A stretch of 64,000 nucleotides of DNA, from the NCBI GenBank assembly GCA_964203225.1, contig CAXNMK010000002.1, positions 481,664 through 545,663 on the forward strand, written 5' to 3'. This document shows positions 25,858-27,320 of the stretch, piece by piece (position 1 is the first letter of the stretch; each line of letters starts with the position of its first letter). Under the pieces are notes generated by a model, which made no database searches, was not told where the DNA came from, and saw only the letters and a list, made by a program, of their open reading frames with translations. The stretch comes from Kofleriaceae bacterium. GTDB lineage: Bacteria; Myxococcota_A; Polyangia; Haliangiales; Haliangiaceae. A program made the translations under genes and the position numbers.

Positions 25858-27320
25858 GCGGCGACGACGCGGGCGCGGCGATGGGAACGGGCGCGGCCGC
25901 CGGTGCGGCGACGGGCGCGGGTGCGGCGACGGCCGCCGGTGCGGCGACGGGCGCGGGTGCGGCGACGGGTGCGGCGGCGGCGGCGGCAGCGGGGCGCGAC
26001 GGGTGCGGCGGCGGCGGCGGCACGGCGCGGCGCGGCGGGTGCGGCGACGGGCGGGGTGCGGCGGCGGGGTGCGGCGACGGGCGCGGGTGCGGCGACGGGC
26101 GCGGGTGCGGCGACGGGCGCGGGTGCGGCGACGGGCGCGGGTGCGGCGACGGCAGCCGGTGCGGCGACGGCGGCGGCAGCGGGTGCGGCGACGGCGGCGG
26201 CAGCGGGTGCGGCGACGGGCGCGGTGCGGCAGCGGGTGCGGCGACGGGCGCGGTGCGGCGGCGGGTGCGGCGACGGGCGCGGGTGCGGCGACGGGGCGGC
26301 GCGGCGGCGGGTGCGGCGACGGGCGCGGGTGCGGCGACGGGCGCGGGCGGCGGCGAGCGCGGCGCGGGTGCGGCGACGGGCGCGGGTGCGGCGACGGGCG
26401 CGGGTGCGGCGACGGGCGCGGGTGCGGCGACGGGCGCGGGTGCGGCGACGGGCGCGGTGCGGCGGCGGGTGCGGCGACGGGCGCGGGTGCGGCGACGGCT
26501 GCACGGTGCGGCGACGACGCGGGCGCGGCGACGGGTGCGGCGACGGCGGCCGGTGCGGCGACGGGCGCGGCGCGGCGACGGCGGCGGCAGCGGGTGCGGC
26601 GACGGCGGCGGCAGGCGGGTGCGGCGACGGGCGGCGGTGCGGCGGCGGGCGCGGGTGCGGCGACGGCGGCGGCAGCGGGTGCGGCGCTGGCGCGGGCGCG
26701 GCGACGGCAGCAGAGGCGGCGACGGCGGCGGGCGCGGCGACGGCGGCGGGCGCGGCGACGGCAGCGGGCGCGGCGACGGCAGCGGGCGCGGCGACGGCAG
26801 CGGGCGCGGCGACGGCTAGCGGCAGCGGGCGCGGCGACGGGCGCGGGCGCGGCGACGGCGGCGGGCGCAGCGTGCACGGCCGCAGCGGGTGCGACGGCGG
26901 CGACGGGCGCGGCGACGGGCAGCGGGCGCGGCGACGGCAGCGGCAGCGGGCGCGGCGACGGGCGCGGGCGCGGCGACGGCGGCGGGCGCAGCGAGCGACG
27001 ACGGGCGGCGGGTGCGACGGCGGCGACGGGCGCGGCGACGGCGCGGGCGCGGCGGCGGCAGCGGTGCGACGGGCGCAGCGGGTGCGACGGCGGCGACGGG
27101 CGCGGCGACGGGCGCGGGCGCGGCGGCGGCAGCGGGTGCGACGGCGGCGGCGGGCGCGGCGACGGCGGCGCGGCGCGGCGGCGCGGCGGGTGCGACGGCG
27201 GCGGCGGGTGCGGCGACGGGCGGCGGGTGCGGCGACGGGCGCGGGTGCGGCGACGGGCGCGGGTGCGGCGACGGCAGCCGGTGCGCATGGCGACGACGCG
27301 GCGCGGCGACGGCAGCGGGC
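25858..27320. repeat. ~1.46 kb GC-rich minisatellite of degenerate 18-bp units (gcgggtgcggcgacgggc and variants)
   Basis: Dozens of tandem copies. Open in all six frames, but ORF-track translations keep switching frame (AGAATG / CGDGRG / RRRVRR). This argues against coding. GGG tracts sit at 3-9 nt spacing on the + strand. Confidence 0.9.

Follow-up and report, generated by a model that had tools for sequence, protein, structure and literature searches.

The window analyzed here is a 64-kb stretch of DNA with a GC content of 72.5%. Its gene content (DUF4388) and the sources named for the closest protein homologues (Kofleriaceae, Myxococcales) indicate an origin in Myxococcota. Because lists of open reading frames are uninformative at this composition, genes were placed by codon-position GC and by matches to Pfam and NCBIfam (Table 1). 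Two genes lie between two tandem arrays, designated A and B. The first encodes a four-helix-bundle protein of PF05635, a family described as Avd-like (PMC10053308), and the second a RAYT-like transposase of the Y1 (HUH) type. With the NCBIfam model REP_Tyr_transpos the latter protein scored 31 bits, below the cutoff of 80, and its homologues carry the name RayT. The gene convergent to this pair, located beyond array B, is probably a 5'-truncated remnant, since its match is to the C-terminal portion of a 331-aa family; it is called as a 99-aa protein in three other contigs (L139–L141) and in the protein collection. A scan of positions 23000–28000 for sigma-70 promoters and intrinsic terminators predicted none, and a tblastn search of plasmids with the four-helix protein gave no match.

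Array A, the second array that a previous sequence-only reading had placed on the other side of the gene pair, does exist. It consists of (GGTGGC)n, 53 copies of which were found by TRF over 23293–23618, followed by 16.5 copies of an 18-mer, CGGTGGCGGCCTCGGCTT. Downstream of it, the spacer at 23900–24273 is about 88% identical between two haplotypes and has no codon periodicity; at about 24274 the identity rises abruptly to 100%.

Table 1. Features at the locus of arrays A and B (window coordinates)
Feature	Position	Strand	Basis or description
Beta-propeller gene	19627–22560	+	
Degenerate HATPase-like gene	about 22545–23258	+	
Array A	23293–23899	.	TRF, 607 nt
Non-coding spacer	23900–24332	.	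~430 nt, haplotype comparison
Four-helix-bundle protein gene, 104 aa	24333–24647	+	PF05635 / TIGR02436, Avd-like family
RAYT-like Y1 (HUH) transposase gene, 278 aa	24817–25653	+	Pfam Y1_Tnp, 8e-07
Spacer, RAYT stop to array B	25654–25857	.	204 nt, unique in window
Array B, GC-rich minisatellite	25858–27320	.	TRF, unit segmentation, motif count, contig-confirmed edges
Block I of array B	25858–26697	.	Mostly T-type units (…GGGCGCGGGT)
Block II of array B	26698–27197	.	C-type units (GCGGCGACGGC[A/G]GCGGGC)
Block III of array B	27198–27320	.	T-type units again, then degenerate end units
Spacer, array B to stop of convergent gene	27321–27449	.	129 nt, unique in window
Convergent gene, probably 5'-truncated	27450–27890	-	Matches C-terminal part of 331-aa family member P0154
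Gene after convergent gene	27891–28673	-	
DUF4388 gene		-	

Array B is composed of about 80 head-to-tail copies of an 18-bp unit, GCGGCGACGGGCGCGGGT and its variants, over 1.46 kb, and thus has the arrangement and the unit length (10–100 bp) of a minisatellite. TRF reported the array at 25890–27285 with a period of 18, 78.1 copies and a score of 1038, the match rate being 75% and indels 13%; its consensus, GGCGACGGGCGCGGGTGC, is a rotation of the unit given by the sequence-only reading. Anchoring on the core GCGGCGAC(G) divided the region from 25858 to 27320 into 81 units, so that the tandem array of roughly 80 units described earlier was reproduced by both methods. Exactly 18 nt separate the anchors in 29 of the 80 intervals, and the exact consensus GCGGCGACGGGCGCGGGT occupies 15 of them. 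Units of exactly 18 nt vary at positions 11, 12, 15 and 18 only. The array has a GC content of 89% (G 855, C 445, A 107, T 56) and a GC skew of about +0.3, the plus strand being G-rich. Three blocks could be distinguished by unit type: block I contains a recurring composite unit of 17+12 nt, also present in the Illumina-based contig L142, and an exact 63-nt duplicate (26232–26294 = 26436–26498); block II contains a 121-bp higher-order repeat (26818–26872 = 26939–26993); and block III contains a 1-nt indel and an SNP relative to contigs L140 and L141.

In the window, 37 matches to the 18-mer with up to 2 mismatches were found against 0.34 expected, and 36 of them fall inside array B. An inverted near-copy of the unit at 24139–24156 was judged a chance match because it is not conserved in L142. 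The unit was not found in the 141 other loci fetched, viral contigs contained no match to a 26-mer of the array, and Rfam recognized no family in 22500–28500 at E values up to 1. Metagenome contigs were searched with three GCGGCGACGG cores at 18-nt spacing, a query that proved too loose: it returned at least 120 arrays, most of them short, most free of indels and probably coding, and the array B unit occurs in none of them. As the units follow each other without intervening spacers, array B is not a CRISPR. Its size is indeed unusual, as had been remarked, since the remaining arrays of the 64 kb, apart from the 607-nt array A, measure about 200 nt at most.

Independent support for the assembly came from five short MEGAHIT metagenome contigs of the same organism (L139–L143), Illumina-based and derived from three ENA samples, which match the flanks of array B at 99.8–100%. 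L139 corresponds to window 27320–29030 at 100% and ends exactly at the edge of the array. L140 and L141 correspond to 27207–28480 and 27202–28448, respectively (99.8–99.9%), and end about 115 nt inside it. On the other side, L143 matches 23768–25989 with 5 mismatches and no gaps, starting inside array A and ending 132 nt inside array B, and L142 also runs into array B. All five contigs break within the arrays or at an array edge, at most 136 nt into array B, as is expected for a long repeat. The exact RAYT-like, four-helix and downstream proteins are recorded on an NCBI/ENA contig as well as on short MEGAHIT contigs. Array B is therefore real, with both edges and 115–136 nt inward independently confirmed, and the island between arrays A and B is confirmed by the same kind of evidence.

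That array B, or its size and indels, might nevertheless be an artefact of assembly or sequencing is suggested by two observations: the interior, approximately 25994–27201, is covered by no independent contig, so that the total length is that of the window assembly alone, and the unit at 27265, of 25 nt in the window, has 24 nt in both L140 and L141. However, besides the edges confirmed in three samples and the contig breaks where a long repeat predicts them, the unique flanks show 0 indels relative to the short-read contigs. Units of odd length (17, 19 and 13 nt, and the 17+12 composite) are present in the Illumina-based contigs, and most of those covered by the five contigs were confirmed by them. 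Moreover, the indel variants recur within exact duplicates of 45–63 nt, which indicates that they were copied and are not random errors. An artefact, a possibility left standing by the sequence-only reading, is thus very unlikely, and at the edges of the array the contigs contradict it.

The same contigs revealed that array B differs in structure between co-occurring strains, a comparison that the sequence-only reading had proposed for array length. In the 115 array bases that they cover, both L140 and L141 depart from the window by a 1-nt indel, to which L141 adds an SNP, while the unique flank of L139–L141 (about 1.1–1.7 kb) shows 0 differences. Between 24274 and 25993, L142 does not differ from the window, and it then jumps to approximately 26208 onward; past 25993 it matches window 26190–26245 with two substitutions, equivalent to a 214-nt difference in arrangement. 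The unit order, the 1-nt indel and the SNP thus provide the strain variation that is typical of a VNTR. To the left of approximately 24273, L142 is about 88% identical to the window (37 mismatches and 14 gap columns, without codon periodicity), and array A is replaced by (GGTCGC)n and 34-nt units. The population therefore holds several haplotypes of the island, of which the arrays are the most variable parts.

Array B is intergenic, being located between the stop of the RAYT-like gene (25653) and that of the convergent gene (27450), and it is non-coding. It had been stated that all six frames are open through the array, but this holds for 4 of 6 only, since the other two contain one TAG each, both due to the CTAG at 26816–26819. 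The switching between frames noted at the same time is real: of the 80 unit spacings, 54 are divisible by 3, as against 26 that are not. The array resembles itself strongly at lags of 18, 36 and 54, and the matches at longer lags show no mod-3 phase (0.443, 0.443 and 0.437). Exact duplicates of 45–63 nt occur at lags of 121, 263, 281, 823 and 916, all of which are non-zero mod 3, so that identical DNA is read in different frames inside one ORF. Codon-position GC is 0.84–0.96 at all three positions in the array, without the asymmetry of the flanking genes (about 0.7/0.45/0.95). A single frame preserved through the whole array, as a coding tandem repeat would have, was looked for and not found. 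With the phase broken some 26 times, partly within stretches validated by the Illumina-based contigs, the array cannot at present encode a uniform repeat protein, and the earlier judgement that coding is very unlikely can be upheld.

Two ORFs nevertheless span array B, one of 540 aa on the plus strand (25810–27432) and one of 501 aa on the minus strand (25819–27324), and either might be translated as a low-complexity protein. In accordance with this, the unit positions that vary, 12, 15 and 18 together with 11, coincide with the wobble positions in two frames, AAT(G/A)AG on the plus strand and PA(P/A)VAA on the minus strand, which is the codon-like variation seen in coding tandem repeats. Against it are the following: i) at 89% GC, open frames are expected from composition; ii) both ORFs are mosaics in which three repeat peptides, unrelated to one another, alternate at intervals of 50 codons or less, the plus-strand ORF alternating between R-rich, A/G/T-rich and C/G/D-rich stretches; iii) the codon-position asymmetry is lacking, and Pfam gave no match for the six ORFs through the arrays; iv) the maximal array B ORFs were not found in a collection of 15 billion proteins in which the flanking genes are present; v) with the 1-nt indel polymorphism, almost all of the minus-strand ORF would be shifted; and vi) the first unit after the ATG is a frame-shifting 17-mer, confirmed in L142 and L143. 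Hence there is hardly any likelihood that array B is translated. Judging from the pattern of variation, the seed of the array may have been codon-like or once coding, a pattern incompatible with present coding.

The plus strand of array B carries 96 tracts of three or more G and no tract of three or more C. The GGG spacing of 3–9 nt noted previously holds in part: 50 of the 95 gaps, about half, are of 3 or 9 nt, and the rest differ. Because loops of 3 and 9 nt alternate, no canonical G-quadruplex (G4) motif with loops up to 7 nt is present, and 8 non-overlapping motifs were found when loops up to 12 nt were allowed. The G4Hunter mean is 0.92, with 13% of 25-nt windows at 1.2 or above and 1% at 1.5 or above, where a G4-forming minisatellite would be expected to reach at least 1.2–1.5. 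The G4 formation ascribed to this strand is thus possible, but it is a weak prediction. Since the array contains 30% C, competing hairpins are allowed, and folding predicts that the G-rich strand forms register-slipped GC hairpins instead of G4. Such a regular GC-paired hairpin has -31.8 kcal/mol per 90 nt and is no more stable than that of shuffled sequence (z = -0.8).

It may be asked whether non-B DNA on the plus strand, either G4 or R-loops, separates the two convergent genes as a barrier or insulator, or provides a hotspot of recombination. The GC skew, the G tracts unaccompanied by C tracts, the 8 long-loop motifs and the failure to predict an intrinsic terminator between the two genes would all agree with such a role. 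On the other hand, the low G4Hunter values, the missing canonical motifs and the hairpins permitted by the C content speak against it, and the array is absent from a related locus (L001) with the same convergent arrangement. We therefore regard a structural role of this kind as improbable.

The relation of array B to the RAYT-like gene was examined by comparison with loci carrying homologues of that gene. In L001, a locus that is partly syntenic with the window, the RAYT gene is 88% identical in DNA and the homologue of the convergent gene is 66% identical in protein, but the RAYT stop is only about 18 bp from the homologue of window 27462–27563. The 204-nt spacer, array B and most of the 129-nt spacer, 1.8 kb in all, are missing, and a 102-nt duplicated fragment of the convergent-gene homologue is present. 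In L004, L016, L017 and L018, RAYT genes 80–92% identical lie in other contexts, with ordinary downstream sequence and no array. The DNA common to the RAYT homologues is limited to 24761–25668. More distant RAYT loci on long contigs contained no comparable arrays; a search of genome contigs with the RAYT protein detected only relatives at 44–48% identity, and tblastx between the relatives and the window, which gave too much noise at such a GC content, added nothing beyond blastn. An upstream motif of the RAYT relatives (GTCAGG…CTGAC…CTGTACC) is not present in the window. The literature search found nothing relevant that joins RAYT, or myxobacteria, with minisatellites.

REP/BIME sequences are palindromic, dispersed and associated with orthologous RAYT genes, and array B has none of these properties. 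As single-stranded DNA its units fold no better than shuffled sequences on the plus strand (z = -0.8 and -1.3), the values for the minus strand being z = +2.1 and +3.5; the unit is non-palindromic and, within the 64-kb window in which dispersal was assessed, confined to the array except for one match; and five close RAYT homologues are without arrays. Array B is therefore not a REP-like partner of the RAYT-like gene, and the idea of a structured locus organized around RAYT finds no support in these five other contexts. A separate interspersed element of 82 nt, folding into three hairpins (z = -4.6), was observed at 2077–2266, 6114–6250, 10528–10576, 34122–34225 and 41334–41372; it is a better REP candidate than array B.

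The co-location of the two arrays is real, since arrays A and B flank the same island in independent assemblies, and it goes with the variable locus or with the four-helix gene and not with RAYT. As the other arrays of the 64 kb do not exceed about 200 nt, co-location by chance is unlikely; a rough estimate of the probability of two large arrays around a 1.9-kb gene pair, considering any adjacent intergenic pair, is about 0.04. Four-helix genes in other contigs are worth noting in this respect: 1) L144 and L145 contain the same four-helix gene (93–96% nucleotide identity) with short repeats just downstream. 2) L146, a 618-kb contig of a distantly related Myxococcales MAG (GCA_016720595.1), carries a homologue of the convergent gene, followed by a 15-mer array and then a PF05635 gene that is 38% identical to that of the window. 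After these come arrays of a 12-mer (21 copies), of (GCGGAT/GCGGGT)n and of a 93-mer (2.9 copies), and none of the five arrays of at least 100 nt in this 20-kb locus is more than 1.6 kb away from the four-helix gene. The L146 locus does not contain a RAYT gene. The clustering in L146 hints at a local cause beyond neutral slippage.

From these data it might be proposed that the arrays are functionally tied to the island of the four-helix (Avd-like) and RAYT-like genes, as candidate binding sites or as substrates forming single-stranded DNA or R-loops. The flanking position of both large arrays, the five arrays near the PF05635 gene of L146 and the short repeats just 3' of the four-helix gene in L144 and L145 are consistent with this proposal, as is the G-richness that both window arrays show on the strand that is sense for the upstream genes, a bias that would favour R-loops. 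However, the units of one locus are unrelated in sequence to those of another, and the same is true even of the haplotypes, so that there is no conserved binding motif; the strand bias is not conserved, C-rich and G-rich arrays being mixed in L146; no arrays accompany RAYT homologues that lack a four-helix gene; the units do not have the palindromic form of REP-like substrates; and the comparison comprises just 3–4 independent four-helix contexts. Such a functional tie is accordingly doubtful. A diversity-generating retroelement, which an Avd-like protein might bring to mind, was also rejected, as no reverse transcriptase domain was detected in the genes scanned from 19.6 to 32 kb and the repeats are tandem, not a TR/VR pair. 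A more general and quite speculative notion, to which we attach little probability, is that small PF05635 genes, in this branch of Myxococcota, are markers of loci where unrelated arrays that evolve fast arise again and again; the window, haplotype L142 with its different units and the distant L146 with five arrays would be examples. Should it be true, the repeats would be made or stabilized by a protein-dependent process and not by passive slippage, with nicking or template switching by partners such as the Y1 transposase as candidate processes. Taken together, the loci compared, the probably truncated convergent gene and the duplicated fragment in L001 describe a decaying, rearrangement-prone locus in which unrelated repeats arise and turn over.

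Array B is thus a large bacterial minisatellite; it is neither a gene nor conserved as a partner of the RAYT-like gene. We consider it likely that it is a non-coding hypervariable minisatellite (VNTR) which slippage and unequal exchange produced in a dispensable spacer or island. The seed would have been a short codon-like sequence of 18 bp, (GCN/GGN)6, itself made up of three related hexamers and amplified by replication slippage. Repeats of the (CGG)n type form register-slipped hairpins, and folding of the G-rich strand into hairpins of this kind may have accompanied the slippage. Unequal homologous exchange could then have reshaped the array, giving rise to the variant sub-blocks and the 121-bp and 204-bp higher-order duplications. 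If the sequence is under no selection, rapid turnover would follow, which would account for the differences between strains and for the absence of the array at the junction of the related species (L001). The island holding the four-helix-bundle, RAYT-like and truncated genes would be rearrangement-prone and dispensable, with the array filling its convergent spacer. We infer both this mechanism and the lack of a sequence-specific function of array B; the variation at positions 11, 12, 15 and 18, with its 3-nt periodicity, speaks against them in so far as it could mean that the seed was once coding.

These results indicate that a bacterial chromosome can hold a kilobase-scale, GC-rich minisatellite of the eukaryotic style that varies among the strains of one community. 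Such arrays break short-read assemblies, as seen from the five contigs ending in the two arrays of the island, and create spurious ORFs, and they are usable as strain markers. If the clustering of unrelated arrays at four-helix-bundle genes holds, it would suggest an unrecognized source of repeat instability.

Intergenic VNTRs of bacteria, for example those of Xanthomonas and Mycobacterium, serve as typing loci for MLVA. Array B shares with them the head-to-tail intergenic units of 10–100 bp, the variant units, the differences between strains and the presumed origin by slippage and unequal recombination. It differs in being much larger (about 80 copies, 1.46 kb, 89% GC), in its 13% internal indels and in having a second array 2 kb away. 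With REP/BIME (REPIN) clusters it shares the presence of non-coding repeats to either side of a RAYT-like gene; in contrast to them, it is strand-asymmetric, strictly tandem, non-palindromic and undispersed, and is absent beside close RAYT homologues. The human minisatellites CEB1 and CEB25 resemble array B in the strand asymmetry of G, the mosaics of variant units, the higher-order duplications and the instability, and they form robust G-quadruplexes (PMC3486850), whereas array B, in a bacterial host, has no canonical G4 motif and a G4Hunter score below the threshold. A minisatellite borne by a MITE was considered and rejected for array B, as terminal inverted repeats are lacking: no inverted repeats were found between the spacers at 25654–25857 and 27321–27449, and neither spacer has another copy in the window. 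BrickBuilt of Porphyromonas gingivalis, a 23-nt minisatellite inside a MITE, is provided with leader and tail subunits, ends in inverted repeats and occurs in 19 copies per genome (PMC4596501), whereas the spacers of array B have no shared inverted repeat and its unit occurs at one locus among everything fetched. Both are spacer-free tandem arrays in intergenic positions, the only positions in which BrickBuilt occurs, and are associated with mobile-element biology (PMC4596501); BrickBuilt is the closest published analogue of array B that we found.

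When array A, the tandem array upstream of the four-helix gene, and its spacer (window 23293–24273) were compared with positions 1–690 of L142, a metagenome contig carrying a second haplotype of the island, the array of L142 was unlike that of the window, consisting of (GGTCGC)n together with 34-nt units, and the spacer after it shared 88% identity. Identity then rises to 100% from about position 24274 through 25993. So abrupt a switch indicates that a sharply defined breakpoint, from recombination or transfer, lies a short way upstream of the four-helix gene. The table includes a single inverted near-copy of the unit of array B (the array downstream of the RAYT gene), located in the spacer that separates array A from the four-helix gene; in the sequence comparison it was not kept in L142, and it is probably a chance occurrence.

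The convergent gene downstream of array B (27450–27890, minus strand) matches only the C-terminal part of its 331-aa homologue P0154 and is called as 99 aa in matching short-read contigs and in the protein collection, so that it is probably a 5'-truncated remnant. The protein P0122 looks like a chimera, with an N-terminus of the type of L001 (a relative with an 88% identical RAYT gene but no array) and a C-terminus of the window type. In L001, a 102-nt duplicate of the neighbouring gene's 3' end (3792–3893) adjoins the RAYT gene and is followed by a pair of genes of 74 and 168 aa (4075–4802) that the window does not contain.

In the region 10643–12283 of L146, a distant Myxococcales MAG, the PF05635 four-helix gene comes after a homologue of the same convergent gene and is surrounded by five unrelated tandem arrays (15-mer, 12-mer, 6-mer, 9/24-mer and 93-mer); the ORFs called across these arrays (82 and 187 aa) look spurious. 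On contig L144, an ORF beginning MGTRVGPKIRSVLARRLRESPVQGELDLVPRTWGGR (814–921), 3' of a 96% identical four-helix gene, takes the place held by RAYT in the window and might encode another transposase.

Repeat features of the window.
Feature	Position	Strand	Remarks
Intergenic element, ~82 nt	2077–2266		2.3 perfect tandem copies
Same	6114–6250	-	
Same	10528–10576	-	
Same	34122–34225		
Same	41334–41372		
Smaller GC-rich tandem repeats	7459–7662, 58197–58379		Units of 18/24/27 nt, also 9 nt (CGGTGGTCG)
Array-B unit near-copy	24139–24156	-	1 mismatch

The regions holding the smaller GC-rich repeats are overlapped by ORFs on both strands, and the repeats are probably coding low-complexity stretches. 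The fold of the interspersed ~82-nt element has three hairpins (-25.9 kcal/mol, z = -4.6); in appearance the element is REP/MITE-like, and as a RAYT substrate it is more plausible than arrays A and B.
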